From Candidatus Omnitrophota bacterium (GTDB lineage: Bacteria; Omnitrophota; Gorgyraeia; Zapsychrales; Zapsychraceae), in NCBI GenBank assembly GCA_035292445.1, contig DATDQB010000017.1, forward strand, positions 55,051 through 119,050: a stretch of DNA of 64,000 nucleotides, given 5' to 3'. Positions 29 through 52,208 of the stretch are shown here, piece by piece. The notes beneath the pieces are model-generated. The model did no database searches. It was not told the origin of the DNA and saw only the letters and a list, made by a program, of their open reading frames with translations. The translations under genes and the position numbers were made by a program. Every line of letters starts with the position of its first letter. Position 1 is the first letter of the stretch.

Positions 29-3000
29 ATGGGGACCGACCCCGCCATGCTGGGGGAAGAGCAGGCGCCAGACACCAGACGCCAAACGCAAGACGATCGC
101 GACGAAGCGATGGCAACCGAAGATGAGGAAGGGCTAAAAAGTTTGATCCGTCAATTGGCGAGCGGTAATAACGTGGATCCAATCGGCGTCCGCAGGCCGG
201 CACCTGCGGGGCCCGTCATAGACATAGCTTCCGCAATGAAATACGACTTTGCTTCTGATGGCGCGGATAACAAGCTGAATAGATGGAATTTGCGGTTTGA
301 AAATTATGAAATCAAAAGCATCAACCTGACAGATGGCGTTTATTATGCGGAATTTCGTTCTTTAGGAAATGCTTTGGGCGCACCGCACATCAGGCATGGT
401 TTAATCAACTCTCGGCAGCTTGATCAGATCATAAGGACGTTAAACAAGATAAGCCCACTCAATTTTATTGAGTTTGAAGGTCTGTTCAGGTATTACAGCG
501 GCTTTCTTGCCCCGCTAGAGGTAAATGAGAGCGAAGACGCCGTATCTTTTAGCTTGAGATGGAGCGGCCGCTCGTTGGATGGATATAAAATTGATGCATC
601 TGAACTTAAGGAGCATCGAGAGGTCGGGTTGACGCTAACAACGCCCAGCGGTGAAAAATCGGTGTTTATGAAAACCTCTGATTTTCTTAATTGGGTTATC
701 GCTCTCCAGCATTTATCGGCAGAAGGCAGGGTGGAGGAATTCAAGGGGCTTTTTGACCGCGAAGATAACGGCGGAATGATGGGCTTTGATTATGACTATA
801 AACTCCTTGATTTTGTAAAGCGACCCCCGCCGGCTTCAACGCCCATTAAGCAACCAAGAACCCTAGAGCAATTATATGATATCATTGCGGGCGCTGAAGC
901 CGGTGCAGCGCTATCCTCCTATACGTTACGCACCTATGACCCTCATAAAAGCATAACCATTACGGTCCTTGCTTACTTTTCCGATGATATTTTTGTTATT
1001 GAGTATTCCAGACCGGAAGAGAGTGGCCACCCCGCCATCAAAAGGCGCGGGTTGCTTAGAAAATATGATCTTGATCAGATGATTTTCGATAAGTATGATT
1101 CCATCAAAACATATATGGACTCCTATGATGCGGAAAGGCTCCCGAGAGAAATGTTTTATGTAGAAAAAACGGCTGAAAAGCTGGAGAAAAATGCATCAAG
1201 CCAATATGAGATCACCCTGGGCAGCTTCCATTATTACCACAATACCAATAAAATCGAGGCCAGTTTTGATCCGGCCATCCCGGATGATGTATCTGTTGAA
1301 ATTTATGATTTAGAAAAAGGGGTTCGGGTCAAAAAATCCGGTACGATGGGCTTTTTTGATTTTTTTGAGATAATAAAAACGGTGTATTTCGGAAGCTATG
1401 GTAATTCGTTCTTAATGGGTGCTCTGTCTGACATGCTCTTACTGAATGATTCTGCGAGCATGATCGCTGATAAGGATTATGGCGCGCGCAAAACCCTCGT
1501 GGCCATACGTTACATCAGGTCATGGCTTAATTCTGATGTGTTTAAGGCGAGCGTCTATAAACCTAAAATGCTGCCGAGCGCGGTCGATCTAACCGTGCAG
1601 AATATAATTCGATTTGACCGATCATTGGATGATGAAATTCAAGAAATTGTTGCCGCTTTATTCGGGGAAATGGGCGCCGCCCTGGGATTAAAAATAGAGA
1701 TATCAAAACGGGAGAACGGCACCTATATACACATCCGCCGAAAGCACGTATTAGGAAAAATTAAAGCTAACGTAACCGAATCAATAGACGACTTTACAAA
1801 AGGAATCCGCCAAAGCATGGGAACATGGTTAAAAGATTTTGAATCTCAGCTGTGGATTGTCCACGCACGGGAAGACGGTTTTGAGGTCATGGACCGACAA
1901 TCCGGCCGCAAGCCAGACCCCGCCATGCTTGGGGAAGAAGAGACGCCAGACGCCAGACGCCAGACACCACATGAACGCGATGAGGCGATGTTAAATATAA
2001 CCTTGAGAGAAGAAATGACTGCGGGAGAACTTGCCGAAAGACTGGGCATTAATATTGAAAGCATAGTTCTTATCTATGGAGAAAATGAAGAGCTGCCTCT
2101 TTTTATTCACCCGACACAAAACCATCCCAATCTGCCTTTAGAAACACAACGCACATATTACATAGACACAAAGAATTTGGATTCTGGAGTTCTGGCCCGA
2201 CTTTTTAATGCGGATTTCATCGGTGGCGTTGGTATTTCAGACATTAAAGAACTGCCTGAAGAAGAAGAGCTTGAAATGCGTTTCAAGATGGCATCGCAAC
2301 AAGTTACGCAAGCTCAAAAAGATTTAGAAGAAGCTCAGCGATCCGCTGATCGCACTGGAAATTATTCGCTAGTTCGTTCTAAAGATAGACTGTTAGAGCT
2401 TGAATTAGCCAACATGGATCGTACGTTAAAAGAACTGCAAAAATTTCGTACGCGAAAGGAAGGTGGCCAAAAGAAAGCTGATGAGGCGATGATGGGGAAG
2501 GAAGAACCGCACATCGTAGATCGCACTTCGTACATCGAAAAAGATAAGGCAATGACAGCTGTTAAACTTAGAGGTTTTACACATTTGGAGCCAACTAGTG
2601 GACGCAGATTTAATGAGGCTGTCTTTGATCTGGAGGGGGTTAACGAACCTGAAACGAACAATACCCACAGAAGATACAGAGAAAATATCGAACAATTGTT
2701 ATCAGATCATGAAGAAATACTCAAAGAACAGGAAAAATTACTTGCCGAAATAGAATCCGCTCTTGACCAAGGAAAAACAGTGGCTATCGGTGTCGAAGAA
2801 GATAGTCAAGGAGTTCAAGAAATCCAACTTGATGCGAGTTTCATTTTAGATCAGATCGTTGAACTCATGCGCATGAGAGGTTTTACTGCCCCCGAAGAGA
2901 AAGCCAGACAGGTATATTTATTAGGAAACGGTGTGGCAAGTTATCTCGTAGCGCTTAAGAAAAATATCCATCTGTTTCCGCTTGAAAACCAAGAATTACG

Positions 3001-3673
3001 TCAACAATCGGGTTCGCTTGCTAGGGAATATGCTGAAATATCGGAAAAATTGAAACCTATATTAATGGGAATTGCTGAATCTGAATTCATTTTATTCGAT
3101 GACACGCTGTATGAAGTAATACTGTCAATCAATGACCCGGATGAGATCTATACAACAATCAACAAATCTGCCGATGCGCTACTAGCAAAATTCCTTGGCA
3201 CTGAACATGAAGCCGATATACGCAGAATGATCGCAATCGCCTCAAAATTCATTCAAAATGCGAGGGAAAGAGAGAAGCCGATGGCAGCTGCAATCAAGGA
3301 ACATGTTCGATCCTATCCGGATTATATTACATTTATTCTTGTTGGCTCCAGCCATGTGGCTGGCTTAAACAGACTTCTAAACAAAAAAGATCAAGAAGTT
3401 GGTGGTATCGATCTTAACCCGCAACTCTTGGACCTTCAGATCAAACGCGATGAAAAGGGAGTACCGCTTCCCGTCAACATGCAGCCCATTCATAATATTC
3501 ATATCGAAGGATTCCTGCCGATCATTATCAACATAACACCGATCAATGTGTCGTTGCCGGTGTATTTGGGATTGGAGGGAGATGGGGAGGATGACACACA
3601 ATTTGGGTTTCAGGATGAATATAAGGCGAGGGAACCGGAGAAAATAAGTTTATTGGATAATAATCTCCAATAA
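29..3673 (+). CDS. large hypothetical protein (1214 aa); the reading frame is open back to window position 2, so it may be 5'-partial
   Basis: Long ORF without Walker or HExxH motifs. An acidic linker motif DEAM../DPAMLGEE.. recurs three times (aa ~1-35, ~630-660, ~815-825). There is a coiled-coil-like segment around aa 760-810. The C-terminal ..FILVGSSHVAGL.. segment weakly resembles the GxxH motif of the Tiki/TraB/GumN superfamily. Confidence 0.5.
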   Translation: MGTDPAMLGEEQAPDTRRQTQDDRDEAMATEDEEGLKSLIRQLASGNNVDPIGVRRPAPAGPVIDIASAMKYDFASDGADNKLNRWNLRFENYEIKSINLTDGVYYAEFRSLGNALGAPHIRHGLINSRQLDQIIRTLNKISPLNFIEFEGLFRYYSGFLAPLEVNESEDAVSFSLRWSGRSLDGYKIDASELKEHREVGLTLTTPSGEKSVFMKTSDFLNWVIALQHLSAEGRVEEFKGLFDREDNGGMMGFDYDYKLLDFVKRPPPASTPIKQPRTLEQLYDIIAGAEAGAALSSYTLRTYDPHKSITITVLAYFSDDIFVIEYSRPEESGHPAIKRRGLLRKYDLDQMIFDKYDSIKTYMDSYDAERLPREMFYVEKTAEKLEKNASSQYEITLGSFHYYHNTNKIEASFDPAIPDDVSVEIYDLEKGVRVKKSGTMGFFDFFEIIKTVYFGSYGNSFLMGALSDMLLLNDSASMIADKDYGARKTLVAIRYIRSWLNSDVFKASVYKPKMLPSAVDLTVQNIIRFDRSLDDEIQEIVAALFGEMGAALGLKIEISKRENGTYIHIRRKHVLGKIKANVTESIDDFTKGIRQSMGTWLKDFESQLWIVHAREDGFEVMDRQSGRKPDPAMLGEEETPDARRQTPHERDEAMLNITLREEMTAGELAERLGINIESIVLIYGENEELPLFIHPTQNHPNLPLETQRTYYIDTKNLDSGVLARLFNADFIGGVGISDIKELPEEEELEMRFKMASQQVTQAQKDLEEAQRSADRTGNYSLVRSKDRLLELELANMDRTLKELQKFRTRKEGGQKKADEAMMGKEEPHIVDRTSYIEKDKAMTAVKLRGFTHLEPTSGRRFNEAVFDLEGVNEPETNNTHRRYRENIEQLLSDHEEILKEQEKLLAEIESALDQGKTVAIGVEEDSQGVQEIQLDASFILDQIVELMRMRGFTAPEEKARQVYLLGNGVASYLVALKKNIHLFPLENQELRQQSGSLAREYAEISEKLKPILMGIAESEFILFDDTLYEVILSINDPDEIYTTINKSADALLAKFLGTEHEADIRRMIAIASKFIQNAREREKPMAAAIKEHVRSYPDYITFILVGSSHVAGLNRLLNKKDQEVGGIDLNPQLLDLQIKRDEKGVPLPVNMQPIHNIHIEGFLPIIINITPINVSLPVYLGLEGDGEDDTQFGFQDEYKAREPEKISLLDNNLQ
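68..95 (+). repeat. heptanucleotide tandem repeat (CCAGACA/CCAGACG/CCAAACG/CAAGACG) inside the CDS
   Basis: Direct reading: four imperfect 7-nt units in tandem. Confidence 0.8.
1946..1966 (+). repeat. heptanucleotide tandem repeat (CCAGACG x2 + CCAGACA) inside the CDS; part of a ~50-nt intragenic direct repeat also seen at 36-110
   Basis: Direct reading. The unit is not a multiple of 3, so changing copy number by one unit frameshifts. Confidence 0.85.
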
Positions 3674-3674
3674 A

Positions 3675-3788
3675 CAAATCCCAAATACCAAACAATATAC
3701 AAACAACAATGACCAAAACTAAAAAATTGGTTATTGGGATTTGAATATTGTGATTTGTTTGGAATTTGGGCTTTGGAATTTGGAAATT
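3675..3788. repeat. heptad-periodic palindromic element between convergent genes
   Basis: Left arm caaatcc caaatac caaacaa tatacaa acaacaa; right arm ttgg ttattgg gatttg.. tttggaa repeats complementary to it. Lies between two stop codons. Confidence 0.7.
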
Positions 3789-3797
3789 AACTTTCCA

Positions 3798-4754: not shown

Positions 4755-4759
4755 TTAAT

Positions 4760-4817
4760 TGTAGGGGCGGACTTTACGTCCGCCCGATTAAGGGCAGGTG
4801 CAAGACCTGCCCCTACA
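4760..4817. other. structured intergenic element: outer stem tgtaggggc/gcccctaca enclosing two hairpins (ggcggac-ttta-gtccgcc and gggcaggt-gcaag-acctgccc)
   Basis: Perfect complementary segments read directly. It exactly fills the 64-nt gap between the moeB-fusion stop and the murB start and has no U-tract. A three-way junction is plausible. Confidence 0.5.
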
Positions 4818-4818
4818 T

Positions 4819-6390
4819 TTATTTGACCGTTTCTTTAAATCGATGACGTAGCGCCTCGATGCCGTCTTTGATGGCAAAAATATTCTCGTAACCTTCTTCG
4901 CGCAGCATCTGCGCCAATTGGGAGCTGCGTACGCCCATGCTGCAAAACAGAAGGTATTTCTTATTTTTGGCAAAAGGGGAGGTGTCGCCCGTGACCCGGC
5001 TTAAAGGAACATGTTCACTTTTGATTTCCATGAGTGGACTATCCGCCCGCTCTTCGGCTTCCCTGACATCGACCAACGTAAAACTTTTCAGCAAATCGGC
5101 ATTTAAGGCGTGGCAATCAATAAGAAATTCCGCCAACGGCTCATAATGCTCTTTACTGATCTGTGTGATGACGGCGTCTTTGCCGCACAGAGGGCAACGG
5201 CTTTCCGGTTTGATCTTCAAACGCCTGATATGGAAATCGGCGACGTTAAGAATCAACAATTCGTTCTCGAACACTTTCTGCATGTTTAGAATGATCCGGA
5301 TCGCTTCCATGGCCTGCAGATGGCCGAAAATGTTGGGGATGACGCCCAGGACGCCTCCGTCGACACATGTTCCCACGCAACCAGGTGTTGGAACGGAAGG
5401 CCACAAACAGCGCAGGCACCCTTTTTGAGAAGGGAGCATGACCCGCAACTGGCCTTCCCATTGAAAAATGCCTGCCTGGATGAGCGTCTTGCGGTTAAGA
5501 AAGCAGGCGTCGTTCAAAAGATATTTTGTTTTAATGTCATCGGTGCAATCAAGGACGATGTCATAGTTCTCGATAAGCCGTTGCGCGTTCTCAAGGTTCA
5601 GGTGTTCCTGGTGCGCGTTGATGGTAACGGAAGGGTTGAGCGAATTGATCTTTTCCTTGGCCACCTGGACCTTGGGCCGGCCGATGTCATCGAACCCGTA
5701 AAGGAACTGGCGGTGGAGGTTGCTGAGCTCAACTTTATCGTGTTCGCAAATGCCTATCGTGCCGACACCCGCCCCTGATAAGCTCATGAGCGCCGGGCAG
5801 CCCAAACCGCCGACGCCCACGATCAAAACCTTGGCCTCTTTCAATTTCTTTTGGCCTTCGGCGCCGACCTCGGGAAGATTGATCTGACGGGCGTAGTAAT
5901 CACTTTCTTCGGGTAACCGGTAACCGGTAACCGGTAACGGCGTGGAGTTACCTGTTACCTGTTTCCCGTACTCCGTTGATTTACAACCCACCCATCCCGA
6001 ATCGCCGCCCGCGTAATATTCCTTTTTCCAAATTGGCAACCGCTTTTTTATCTCATCTATGATATATCGGCAGGCTTTAAAAGCCTCATCGCGATGGGCG
6101 GCCAAGCATCCGACCCACACGGCCATTTGACCGACCTCAATGATCCCCAAGCGATGATAACAGCGAAGTTCGATCGTTGAGAATTTTTCCTTCGCCTCCC
6201 GAAAAATCTCCTCGGCCTCCTTCGTGCACAAGGTTTCTTCGGCTTCGTATTCCAGCCGCAGCACTTTCTTGCCATCGCTATGATCGCGCACACGGCCCTC
6301 AAATGTGGCGAAGGCTCCGGCGCTATCGGCGGTGAAGCCCTCTTTAATGTTGATGCGTTCTAAGGGGAGTGAGGTTAGTTTAAACATCAT
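4819..6390 (-). CDS. MoaE (molybdopterin synthase large subunit) - MoeB/ThiF E1-like adenylyltransferase - rhodanese triple-fusion protein
   Basis: N-terminus matches MoaE (..FEGRVRDHSDG..IWKKEYY). The middle has the ThiF/MoeB Rossmann motif (LIVGVGGLGCPA), RQ motif and CxxC..CxxC zinc site. The C-terminus is a rhodanese with catalytic Cys (FCSMGVRS). The first 15 codons of the track ORF (MLVVREQRTTNNEQR) are encoded by the repeat element at 6387-6450, so the start is set at MMFKL. Confidence 0.8.
   Translation of the reverse strand: MMFKLTSLPLERINIKEGFTADSAGAFATFEGRVRDHSDGKKVLRLEYEAEETLCTKEAEEIFREAKEKFSTIELRCYHRLGIIEVGQMAVWVGCLAAHRDEAFKACRYIIDEIKKRLPIWKKEYYAGGDSGWVGCKSTEYGKQVTGNSTPLPVTGYRLPEESDYYARQINLPEVGAEGQKKLKEAKVLIVGVGGLGCPALMSLSGAGVGTIGICEHDKVELSNLHRQFLYGFDDIGRPKVQVAKEKINSLNPSVTINAHQEHLNLENAQRLIENYDIVLDCTDDIKTKYLLNDACFLNRKTLIQAGIFQWEGQLRVMLPSQKGCLRCLWPSVPTPGCVGTCVDGGVLGVIPNIFGHLQAMEAIRIILNMQKVFENELLILNVADFHIRRLKIKPESRCPLCGKDAVITQISKEHYEPLAEFLIDCHALNADLLKSFTLVDVREAEERADSPLMEIKSEHVPLSRVTGDTSPFAKNKKYLLFCSMGVRSSQLAQMLREEGYENIFAIKDGIEALRHRFKETVK
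5912..5961. repeat. heptad-periodic palindromic element embedded in-frame in the MoaE-MoeB linker
   Basis: (ggtaacc)x3 ggtaac - ggcgtggag - (gttacct)x2; same architecture as the intergenic elements. It translates without a stop as ..QVTGNSTPLPVTGYRLPEE.. Confidence 0.75.
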
Positions 6391-6450
6391 TCGTTGTTCG
6401 TTGTTCGTTGTTCGTTGCTCGCGAACAACGAGCAACTAGCAACGAGCAAC
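6387..6450. repeat. heptad-periodic palindromic element between the ferredoxin 3' end and the moaE-fusion 5' end
   Basis: (ttgttcg)x3 ttgctcg | cgaacaa cgagcaa ctagcaa cgagcaa c - arms of complementary 7-mers. Confidence 0.8.
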
Positions 6451-6459
6451 AAAACTCTA

Positions 6460-6714: not shown

Positions 6715-6721
6715 AAGGAAT

Positions 6722-6832
6722 TAAGTTAATAGTAAATAGTTAATGGCAAATAGTGTTATCGTTCTAAATGGGGCTTCGTCGCCTTTTTGTCATTTCCCCT
6801 ATTAACTATTAACTATTTACCATTAACACTTT
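6722..6832. repeat. heptad-periodic palindromic element with a 47-nt spacer, overlapping the ispH stop
   Basis: Left arm taagtta atagtaa atagtta atggcaa; right arm tattaac tattaac tatttac cattaac. Confidence 0.75.
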
Positions 6833-10230: not shown

Positions 10231-10253
10231 GTAAATACCCCTTTAAATGACAT

Positions 10254-10349
10254 CTTAGTCATAAGTTATAAGTCGTAAGGAGTAAGTATTCTGCCCGTCA
10301 TAACGCTGTTTTATCCTTACCGCTTACAACTTACTACTTATAACTTAAC
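10254..10349. repeat. heptad-periodic palindromic element overlapping the 3' end of the PHP phosphatase gene
   Basis: Left arm gtcataa gttataa gtcgtaa ggagtaa; 28-nt spacer; right arm ccttacc gcttaca acttact acttata acttaac. Confidence 0.75.
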
Positions 10350-13674: not shown

Positions 13675-13735
13675 TTCTAAGCCATAAGCCTTAAGCTGTA
13701 AGCTTACGGCTTACAACTTACGACTTACAACTAAC
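13675..13735. repeat. heptad-periodic palindromic element
   Basis: ttctaag ccataag ccttaag ctgtaag | cttacgg cttacaa cttacga cttacaa. Confidence 0.8.
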
Positions 13736-13747
13736 AATTCAATTAAC

Positions 13748-18000: not shown

Positions 18001-18066
18001 TAGCCCTAAGCCGTAAGTCTTAAGCCGTATATTTTAAAGCTTACAACTTAAGGCTTACGACTTAAA
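18001..18066. repeat. heptad-periodic palindromic element
   Basis: tagccct aagccgt aagtctt aagccgt | atattttaaa | gcttaca acttaag gcttacg acttaaa. Confidence 0.8.
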
Positions 18067-18078
18067 TGAGGTATTCCA

Positions 18079-19086: not shown

Positions 19087-19158
19087 CTTATTGGTTTCCT
19101 GTTTCCTGTTACCAGTTACCTGTAATTATCTGGTAACGGGTAACGGGTAACAGGTAAC
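19087..19158. repeat. heptad-periodic palindromic element
   Basis: cttattg gtttcct gtttcct gttacca gttacct g | taattatc | tggtaac gggtaac gggtaac aggtaac. Confidence 0.8.
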
Positions 19159-19162
19159 TTTT

Positions 19163-20446: not shown

Positions 20447-20450
20447 AAAA

Positions 20451-20519
20451 GTCACCAGTTACCCGTTACCTGTTACCAGATAAAACAGGCAACTGGTAAC
20501 CGGAAACAGGTAACTCGAG
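20451..20519. repeat. heptad-periodic palindromic element between rplM and rpsI
   Basis: gtcacca gttaccc gttacct gttacc | agataaaacaggcaa | ctggtaa ccggaaa caggtaa c. Confidence 0.8.
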
Positions 20520-20534
20520 GGAGTTTTAATAGAA

Positions 20535-27376: not shown

Positions 27377-27464
27377 ATAGTTAATAGTAAATAGTGGATA
27401 GTGGATTTTAATGCCCCCGGACATTTTAATTTGTCCTATTAACTATGAACCATTTACTATTCAC
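27377..27464. repeat. heptad-periodic palindromic element between argG and argH
   Basis: atagtta atagtaa atagtgg atagtgg | 27-nt spacer | tcctatt aactatg aaccatt tactatt cac. Confidence 0.75.
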
Positions 27465-27483
27465 AAAACACTGAGGTTTTATC

Positions 27484-36118: not shown

Positions 36119-36142
36119 AGCTGGCTTTTGCACGATCAATAT

Positions 36143-36186
36143 AAAACGGCCCTTTTACGAACAATCGTATAAGGGCCGTTTTAATT
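36143..36186 (+). terminator. intrinsic terminator (long bulged hairpin aacggccctt..aagggccgtt followed by ttaatt)
   Basis: Direct reading. Confidence 0.6.
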
Positions 36187-51689: not shown

Positions 51690-52106
51690 ATGAAACTCAA
51701 TCGCAGAAGTGGCTTTACCTTACTTGAAATTATCATTGTTATCATTATTGTAGGTGTTCTTGCTTCTTTGGCTTTACCTCGATTCTTCAGTACAGTCGAA
51801 TTCTCCAGATCAACAGAAGCACTTACATCCATGTCCACCGTTCGTCAATCCATTGAACGATGCTACATAGCATCAAACAATAACTATTCCTCATGCATCA
51901 TTGGTGCTATTGACGTTGAAAACCCAGGAATCTCACCAGGGGCTCACTTTACCTACGTGGTCACCGTAGCGCCTACTACTTTCCGAATTGTGGCCCAAAG
52001 AAACGCTGTTAATGCTGGGGACGGCACATCAACAATTAGCCTTGGAGGCAGTTCGGGTGCTGGTGTTGCTAGAAGCGGTAGTGGTGTATTCGTTGGTATC
52101 AAATAA
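51690..52106 (+). CDS. type IVa major pilin (prepilin N-methylation site G|FTLLE)
   Basis: MKLNRRSGFTLLEIIIVIIIVGVLASLALP..; strong SD aaaaggag. Confidence 0.85.
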   Translation: MKLNRRSGFTLLEIIIVIIIVGVLASLALPRFFSTVEFSRSTEALTSMSTVRQSIERCYIASNNNYSSCIIGAIDVENPGISPGAHFTYVVTVAPTTFRIVAQRNAVNAGDGTSTISLGGSSGAGVARSGSGVFVGIK

Positions 52107-52133
52107 CCCGTTCTTTACAACGGCTTAAGTTTA

Positions 52134-52176
52134 CAGAAACATCGAAGCTTTGACTTTCAAGGCTTCGATGTTTCTG
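52134..52176 (+). terminator. perfect 15-bp hairpin (cagaaacatcgaagc / gcttcgatgtttctg) after the first pilin gene; no U-tract
   Basis: Direct reading. Confidence 0.5.
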
Positions 52177-52208
52177 TGTAAGGCTACGAAAGAAGGGGTT
52201 GATGAACC

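Follow-up and report, generated by a model that had tools for sequence, protein, structure and literature searches.

Rickettsia palindromic elements (RPEs) and other repeats resembling MITEs (transposable elements of the miniature inverted-repeat type) are palindromic repeats that are otherwise intergenic but are also found translated in frame within genes, at sites compatible with the protein fold (PMC10969869). Here we describe an element of similar placement in a 64,000-nucleotide stretch of DNA from a Candidatus Omnitrophota bacterium (GenBank assembly GCA_035292445.1, contig DATDQB010000017.1, positions 55,051 to 119,050 of the forward strand), hereafter the window, in which inverted arrays of 7-nt units form a hairpin inside an open reading frame (ORF) that joins a MoaE domain, a ThiF/MoeB adenylyltransferase domain and a rhodanese domain. 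RPEs form families of ~150 bp with conserved sequence and peptide, whereas the window element measures ~55 nt and its units vary by locus and by orthologue. Terminal repeats, target duplications or a transposase were not evident at the window element. When judged as a MITE- or RPE-type insertion, the three copies of its GGTAAC family have common units, without defined ends, loop or flanks, and at the orthologous linker sites the position is kept and the unit is changed.

The heptamers of cyanobacterial STRRs are comparable heptanucleotide repeats. The TAACTGA arrays of Beggiatoaceae, cyanobacteria and Bacteroidetes also consist of tandem 7-nt units, are mostly intergenic and often abut start codons; read in one orientation, their units carry stop codons in all frames, and now and then they are translated, at the periphery of proteins (PMC4679880). 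They are, however, direct arrays of one conserved heptamer, whereas the class described here consists of inverted, hairpin-forming pairs with many different units. Repeats of 7 nt have a slippage-prone length (Mrazek 2007, LSSR class, in the summary given by PMC4679880), and the window element, with at least three tandem 7-nt copies beyond chance expectation, can be counted among such LSSR/STRR-like heptanucleotide repeats. REP/BIME-type palindromes resemble the window class in forming hairpins in the intercistronic spacers of housekeeping operons; the window class, unlike them, is without a common consensus and is internally heptad-periodic. Nor does it belong with REP/RAYT systems: its units vary by locus and a RAYT gene is not among the annotated neighbours (window to 31.8 kb).

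The tandem repeats within Borg genes are direct and have unit lengths divisible by three. Like the window linker, Borg tandem repeats are fast-evolving and translated as intrinsically disordered segments, in the account given by PMC9879509; unlike them, the window unit is 7 nt long, its arrays are inverted, and only particular copy numbers hold the reading frame. With respect to the protein, the ThiF-rhodanese part matches structures of MOCS3/Uba4, the eukaryotic MoeB-rhodanese fusion (6yub, 1e-44), which lacks the N-terminal MoaE of the window protein. The MoaE-MoeB(ThiF)-rhodanese fusion family itself has the same three domains in the same order, but only the window protein and its two nearest relatives have a heptad-palindromic linker, other linkers being unrelated or His-rich. 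In literature searches we did not find inverted heptad hairpins, or the repeats of this lineage, described; these searches yielded analogues only (the TAACTGA, RPE and Borg repeats), and they do not prove that a description is lacking.

A heptad hairpin is translated as an interdomain linker

On the plus strand, the element comprises two inverted arrays (Table 1). Tandem Repeats Finder reports the first as (GGTAACC)x3.9 at 5912-5938, namely, three GGTAACC units followed by GGTAAC, with a period of 7 and a 100% match; and the second as 2.4 copies of GTTACCT at 5947-5963, also with a 100% match. A third, degenerate unit, GTTTCCC (5961-5967), belongs to this second array, which is the arm that carries TAA when read on the coding strand, and puts the end of the element at ~5967. 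The inverted array at 5947-5967 thus reads GTTACCT, GTTACCT, GTTTCCC, and a loop of 8 nt lies between the arrays. The hairpin arms (5910-5931 and 5947-5968) are 22 nt each, with a complementarity of 86%, and RNA folding against shuffled sequences gives a free energy (dG) of -29.5 kcal/mol and a z-score of -3.0.

The element is translated in frame. The minus-strand frame is open from 4819 to 6435 without interruption, with ATG start codons at 6390 and 6387, and the element codes for ~17 residues (aa ~143-159) that read ..GKQVTGNSTPLPVTGYRLPEE.., in agreement with the earlier note. Pfam places a MoaE domain at aa 15-117 (2.5e-31, 108.6 bits against a gathering cut-off of 23.4), a ThiF domain at aa 166-400 (4e-78, 262 bits) and a rhodanese domain at aa 438-514 (1.4e-6, above the gathering score). 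The residues that define each domain are invariant in the family: K122, K123 and E124, with the lysines of the PIWKKE motif, in MoaE; G192, G194, G195 and G197 of the GxGGxG loop, together with the two CxxC zinc motifs (C325, C328, C399 and C402), in ThiF/MoeB; and C483, G486, R488 and S489 of the active-site loop in rhodanese. The window protein retains 68 of the 68 invariant columns in an alignment of 32 sequences, among them the lysines of MoaE, the glycine loop and two CxxC pairs of ThiF, and the cysteine of rhodanese. With three domains in one ORF, in the same order as in its orthologues, it is a member of a widespread MoaE-MoeB-rhodanese fusion family. The ORF, the Pfam and PDB matches and the AlphaFold2 model therefore uphold what the earlier note had read from the letters, that a heptad element lies inside a continuous ORF, in frame between MoaE and MoeB/ThiF.

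The gene is the same DNA in three of three assemblies. Besides the window, two contigs encode the very same protein of 522 aa (P0001): one from ENA (MEGAHIT, 9827 nt), which matches the window at 99.99% identity, and one from JGI (1937 nt), which matches it at 100%. There is no in-frame stop across the element, and the first in-frame start-type codon past it is a TTG located downstream of the invariant N-terminal MoeB residues Y166, Q169, L172, G179 and Q180; therefore, a separate MoeB could not start there.

In structural terms, the element falls between the folded domains. Searching the protein against PDB with phmmer, solved MoaE chains match up to aa 133-140, and ThiF, MoeB and Uba4 chains match from aa 160-164 (1zfn, ~1e-53; 1jw9, ~1e-42), with aa ~141-159 matching no solved structure. 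When segments of three or more residues with low confidence are listed from the AlphaFold2 model, whose mean predicted local distance difference test (pLDDT) score is 87.7, aa 137-157 is the sole one with pLDDT <50, and it has no secondary structure. Since the gap in PDB homology and the single low-pLDDT segment coincide at the element, it is predicted to be a disordered tether and nothing else, of Pro/Gly/Thr-rich composition.

The two arms of the hairpin differ in what they allow the reading frame. On the coding strand, the 3' arm, (GTTACCG)x4, has zero stops in the three frames and encodes the 7-aa periodic peptide PVTGYRL. The 5' arm has one TAA per unit; its two intact units have their TAA codons in the two frames that are not used, whereas the next unit, in which TAA would come in frame, reads GGGAAAC, giving AAA (Lys) instead. 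This pattern fits selection for an open frame, although it is suggestive only. In simulations, gain or loss of 7 or 14 nt gave MoaE-only products of 148-186 aa with the whole MoaE domain inside, and gain or loss of 21 nt stayed in frame. Programmed -1 frameshifting would call for a slippery heptamer (X XXY YYZ, in frame) at a distance of 5-9 nt from the hairpin on its upstream side, and was rejected: the upstream codons are TAC GGG AAA CAG, with no such heptamer in the zero frame.

The fusion is older than the element

Nearly all of the 120 best homologues (41-63% identity) have the full MoaE-ThiF(-rhodanese) architecture, and more than 100 homologues are full-length with three domains. The source names of these 120 are Omnitrophota, Hydrogenedentes, Steroidobacteraceae or Rhodospirillales, and some of them are labelled 'molybdopterin/thiamine biosynthesis adenylyltransferase/molybdopterin synthase catalytic subunit' by JGI and 'ThiF family adenylyltransferase' by NCBI. 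Among the matches listed for species-representative genomes, fusion homologues reach at most 47% identity, with no close relatives, and they occur in Nitrospiraceae, Ignavibacteria, Hydrogenedentota, Obscuribacterales, Opitutaceae and Kiritimatiellales, in Verrucomicrobiota relatives and Steroidobacteraceae, and in many Gammaproteobacteria; the cultured strains among these matches include Rhodanobacter sp. C01, Dyella silvae and Dyella ginsengisoli.

The linker, as read from the alignment and from a list of linkers, is the sole region of these proteins that cannot be aligned, and varies in length from ~8 to >40 residues. First, the heptad signal is confined to the nearest relatives of the window protein. 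Second, many linkers of Gammaproteobacteria (L021, L027, L034, L095, L101, L109 and others, where L numbers denote the loci compared) are long His-Asp, His-Ala or His-Gly simple repeats, for example HDHDHDHDHDHDHDH. Third, the nearest outgroups (L105, L115 and L085-L087) have non-repeat linkers, with RNA folding z-scores from -0.7 to +1.1 against shuffles. The linker is a general hotspot of repeat expansion, and the His-rich tracts might bind metal. The fusion is far older than the element, which is limited to a small clade (window, L003 and L112), because the fusion is spread over many phyla with the same domain order and with variable linkers that are not repeats.

Fission and loss do occur in the fusion family. 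A standalone MoaE of 136-159 aa is present in fdx-moaE-murB synteny at L130, L134, L138, L147 and L155, with murB directly next in some; and at L151 (3001-3739), L153, L156 and L159, where this synteny is also kept, MoaE ends at a stop and is followed by a rhodanese ORF in another frame, the whole of ThiF being deleted. The heptad element is at the junction in none of these cases.

Two further loci may be mentioned here. The protein P0014, from a 1365-nt contig of JGI sample 3300043331 (gene 150-1214), is a relative with 75% identity over ThiF-rhodanese; its gene call begins 'MNLPEVG', right past the linker position, with 149 nt of contig upstream, which hints at a broken ORF upstream, and it may be a natural or artefactual split at the linker. 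At L115 (2800-2970), the gene upstream ends in ..IPPVSGG before its stop, a MoaD-type C-terminus, and the window clade has an 84-aa Fer2-type ferredoxin at this position, with moaD not seen nearby.

Linker elements of the closest relatives keep their place and change their units

By N-terminal sequence, the window protein groups with those of L003 (P0002), L112 and L164 (P0128). Pairwise identities outside the linker among these four are 64-77%, the identity to the window protein being 63% for L003 and 67% for L112, and a neighbour-joining tree resolves them as (WIN,(L003,(L112,L164))) with bootstrap values of 56-68%. Two of the three closest orthologues, L003 and L112, have heptad palindromes in their linkers with units unlike those of the window. 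The linker DNA of L003 reads GGACCAA, GTACCTA, GTACCAA, AGACCAA .. GGTCCTT, GCTCCTT, GGCCCTA, GGTCCTA; that of L112 reads GGGCCAA, GAGACAG, GTGCCAA, GAGACAG .. CTGGGCC, CTTGGCC, CTAGGCC. The 3' halves of these two linkers are homologous as protein (GP..LALGPN[VI]SEQDYY). The third orthologue, L164, sits within the clade yet has a non-repeat linker of 17 aa, which implies, provided that the tree is correct, that the element was lost there. The fusion gene of L164 is broken after aa 225 (2290-2340), with the remainder in the next ORF, probably a sequencing error rather than a real split because the contig has a coverage of 2x.

Folding of the linkers gave z-scores of -3.0 for the window, -2.3 for L112 and -1.8 for L003, compared with -1.4 to +1.1 for non-repeat linkers. 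The hairpin between fdx and moaE is likewise syntenic, with units ACAACGA in the window, ACAAGAA in L003 and L112, CACAAGA in L138, ACAAATN in L164 and a different unit in L159; L130, L134 and L105 lack it, their stop and start codons lying directly next to each other. Place and hairpin form are thus conserved, with units that turn over in concert on both arms.

Hairpins of the same class fill intergenic spacers

Over the first 27.5 kb of the window, inverted heptad arrays take up ~11 spacers between genes, each 60-125 nt long, and in several cases reach or almost reach the adjoining stop or start codon. The spacers are co-directional and separate housekeeping genes: ispH, fdx and moaE; SDR and folB; leuB-like, asd and truA; rplM and rpsI; argG and argH. 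The hairpins are long, composed of ~6-bp helices with a 1x1 mismatch at each seventh base, with z-scores from -3.3 to -6.5, and the linker copy folds in the same way. Their units vary by locus (GGTAACN, GTAAGNN/CTTACNN, TAAATAG/TTAATAG, ACAACGA and CAAATNC), although small families exist. The linker copy belongs to one of these, the GGTAAC family, together with the copies at 19094-19158 and 20450-20514: GGTAACNGGTAAC, allowing at most one mismatch, has 16 matches in the window, all at these three loci, where 0.03 are expected. The earlier note's statement that the element is of the same type as those between genes is therefore correct as to fold and unit; the linker copy differs in that it does not lie between a stop and the next start codon but inside a continuous ORF.

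Period-7 arrays number 10 in the window, and arrays of periods 5, 6 and 8-11 number zero each. Between 27.5 and 64 kb of the window no heptad elements were found, and genes there mostly overlap or abut. Across ~160 other loci (0.9 Mb) from more distant organisms, few strict period-7 arrays and hardly any inverted heptad pairs turn up; the automated detector of inverted heptad pairs is too strict, however, and missed those of L003, L112, L164 and L159, all of them evident on inspection and on folding. None of the heptad elements matches an Rfam family at the gathering score.

Table 1. Features of the fusion gene, its linker element and the heptad-filled spacers, in window coordinates.
Feature	Position	Strand	Description
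MoaE-ThiF/MoeB-rhodanese fusion ORF	4819..6390	-	523 aa from ATG 6390, 522 aa from ATG 6387
MoaE domain (molybdopterin synthase large subunit), ~aa 3-140	5968..6381	-	PF02391, solved-chain matches, confident AlphaFold2 model
ThiF/MoeB adenylyltransferase domain	5191..5895	-	PF00899, 4e-78; matches 1zfn and 1jw9
C-terminal rhodanese domain	4849..5079	-	PF00581, 29.1 bits against a cut-off of 22.2; Cys C483 present
Predicted disordered interdomain linker, aa 137-157 (523-aa numbering)	5920..5982	-	AlphaFold2 pLDDT <50
5' arm on coding strand	5947..5967	-	GGGAAAC AGGTAAC AGGTAAC; from three-frame translation
Hairpin loop	5939..5946	-	coding strand TCCACGCC
3' arm on coding strand	5912..5938	-	(GTTACCG)x3 GTTACC; 100% match, 3.9 copies
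Intergenic heptad hairpin (GTTGCTC.. / ACAACGA x4)	6391..6453	-	ferredoxin stop (6460) to moaE start; dG -29.2, z -3.5
Intergenic heptad hairpin (GTTAATA/TATTAAC)	6724..6828	-	ispH stop to ferredoxin start; z -4.8
GGTAAC/GTTACC family, 4+4 units	19094..19158	+	between asd and truA; dG -35, z -6.5
GGTAAC/GTTACC family	20450..20514	+	between rplM and rpsI; z -4.6
Heptad-filled spacers (not exhaustive)	3674-3797, 6391-6459, 6715-6831, 10231-10337, 13675-13747, 18001-18078, 19087-19162, 20447-20534, 27377-27483		

Other features of the window are of different kinds. In the spacer from the stop of the fusion gene to the start of murB (4756-4821), an outer stem encloses a pair of GC-rich hairpins without heptad period, GGGGCGGAC..GTCCGCCC and GGGCAGGTG..ACCTGCCC, a kind of structure unlike the adjoining heptad elements. 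Inverted repeats of 19-21 nt with 95% complementarity lie between convergent or divergent genes at 52133-52177 and 36142-36183; they are without a heptad period and look like ordinary terminators. The sole Rfam match in the window is a c-di-GMP-I riboswitch (RF01051, 51499-51596, plus strand, 53 bits, E 1.4e-7), whose aptamer sits in a 342-nt gap upstream of the ORF at 51690-52106. The plus-strand ORF at 29-3673 (1214 aa) has no Pfam domain and no detected homologue, and contains an internal repeat of ~75 nt (81% identical; 40-110 and 1915-1990) in which direct heptads, (CAGACGC)x4, lie in frame. At the end of each copy stands GA(C/T)GA(A/G)GCGATG, a motif that also gives the first ATG of the ORF, which may be two genes joined via the repeat, or one with a repeated linker.

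Origin of the linker element

We consider it likely that the element is a hairpin-forming heptad repeat specific to this lineage, which an ancient fusion tolerates in its disordered linker and which is translated as that linker. The fusion came first; only afterwards did the repeat arise or expand at this site, in the ancestor of the small clade or close to it. The process would act on DNA, namely, by slippage of 7-nt units and by palindrome-templated strand switching or conversion, the latter keeping units homogeneous and arms complementary. The MoaE-MoeB/ThiF tether, being disordered and naturally hypervariable, would be the one coding place permissive for such an element; selection for an open frame would then have shaped the copy, with four units in the stop-free arm and two intact units in the TAA arm. 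The product would be one protein of ~58 kDa, and the mRNA hairpin would probably be incidental. The folds of the two strands bear on this last point: over 16 transcribed elements (one more, between convergent genes, is left out of the count), G-U pairs number 26 in sense and 48 in antisense folds, and neither strand is consistently more stable. Since the sense strand shows no excess of G-U pairs or of stability, an origin at the level of DNA is favoured over selection at the level of mRNA.

Several observations weigh against this reading. The repeat-generating process is inferred rather than observed. Near-perfect arrays at one site in three lineages that are 64-73% identical could mean that the structure is selected. 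As for the frame, the GTTTCC (AAA) variant is also present in the intergenic copy at 19094-19107, so that selection on the ORF is not required to explain it. The branching order from which a loss in L164 follows was obtained on 185 columns, with bootstrap values of only 56-68%; and from the DNA alignment it is plausible but unproven that the GGTAAC unit of the window is homologous to the GGNCCAA units seen in L003 and L112.

A bolder and rather unlikely view is that the heptad hairpins are an undescribed, actively homogenised class of structured spacer in an uncultured lineage with Omnitrophota as its nearest named relatives. The linker copy would then be a true dual-coding feature, at once protein tether and nucleic-acid hairpin or slippage tract at the MoaE-MoeB boundary, and would act as a translational pause or as a switch between fused and MoaE-only protein. 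Taken on its own, the idea of a functional dual-coding element, in which selection acts on the hairpin at the domain boundary, as RNA or as DNA, is somewhat less likely still. Such a hairpin might pause ribosomes after MoaE emerges, as an aid to co-translational folding or assembly, or might be a processing or stability signal, as the intercistronic copies might be. That three of the four clade members keep a heptad palindrome at the same linker position despite unit turnover would be expected of it, as would the lower z-scores of the linker hairpins of the window, L112 and L003 than of non-repeat linkers, and one apparent compensatory change in the outer helix, GGACC:GGTCC in L003 against GGGCC:GGCCC in L112. 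However, the z-scores of L003 and L112 are modest, G-U pairs and stability show no sense-strand bias, L164 has lost the element and no other fusion homologue has it, and the same repeats occupy any free spacer, as a non-adaptive process would give.

Alternatively, the repeat could be a contingency switch, in which slippage adds or removes one 7-nt unit, so that the gene alternates between the full fusion and MoaE alone. Repeats of seven nucleotides are known to be prone to slippage, according to the summary in PMC4679880; the simulated changes of 7 and 14 nt behave as such a switch would, with those of 21 nt in frame; relatives have a standalone MoaE (136-159 aa) in the same synteny; and the gene start of P0014, just past the linker, hints at a broken ORF. 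We nevertheless regard this as improbable, given that ~4 units are short for high-rate slippage, that the three assemblies show no copy-number variation, and that a frameshift would abolish MoeB-rhodanese for lack of a restart codon.

The earlier note had proposed that capture of the element, or loss of its flanking stop and start, created the fusion from intergenic DNA between moaE and moeB, as a mechanism of domain fusion. The element does belong to an intergenic type, the unit that would set TAA in frame does read AAA, and domain boundaries in the family are fluid, some relatives having a deleted ThiF and others a MoaE that stands alone. But the same-order fusion, with non-repeat linkers, recurs across many phyla (more than 100 homologues), also in L105, L115 and L085-L087, which are the nearest outgroups, and we found no relative with separate moaE and moeB around an element, an arrangement for which the earlier note had suggested looking in orthologous loci. 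The proposal is thus largely refuted already by phyletic distribution, and we hold it very improbable. The same note had named an ancient, non-repeat linker in orthologues as an observation that would speak against capture; half of this is what we see, in that the fusion is old and the linkers of distant homologues are not repeats, but the sequence of the linker shows no conservation. Finally, the earlier note's other option, an assembly or frameshift artefact that conceals two genes, is scarcely credible, since, although assemblers struggle with palindromic tandem repeats, the ENA MEGAHIT and JGI contigs carry identical gene DNA, the ORF is continuous with invariant residues kept on either side of the element, a separate MoeB would have no start codon, and orthologues share the continuous ORF.

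Implications

An element of intergenic type at a domain junction does not prove that the element made the fusion. If the hairpin were indeed dual-coding, this would explain its persistence at one site through the turnover of units in three lineages. Under the reading favoured here, of a lineage-specific repeat tolerated in the linker of an older fusion, the locus is a clean natural case in which the dynamics of repeats at the nucleotide level write protein sequence, a 7-nt repeat being converted into a peptide with a period of 7 residues, and in which the constraints of the reading frame visibly restrict which arm may expand. The heptad-hairpin class may merit a genome-wide census in this lineage.

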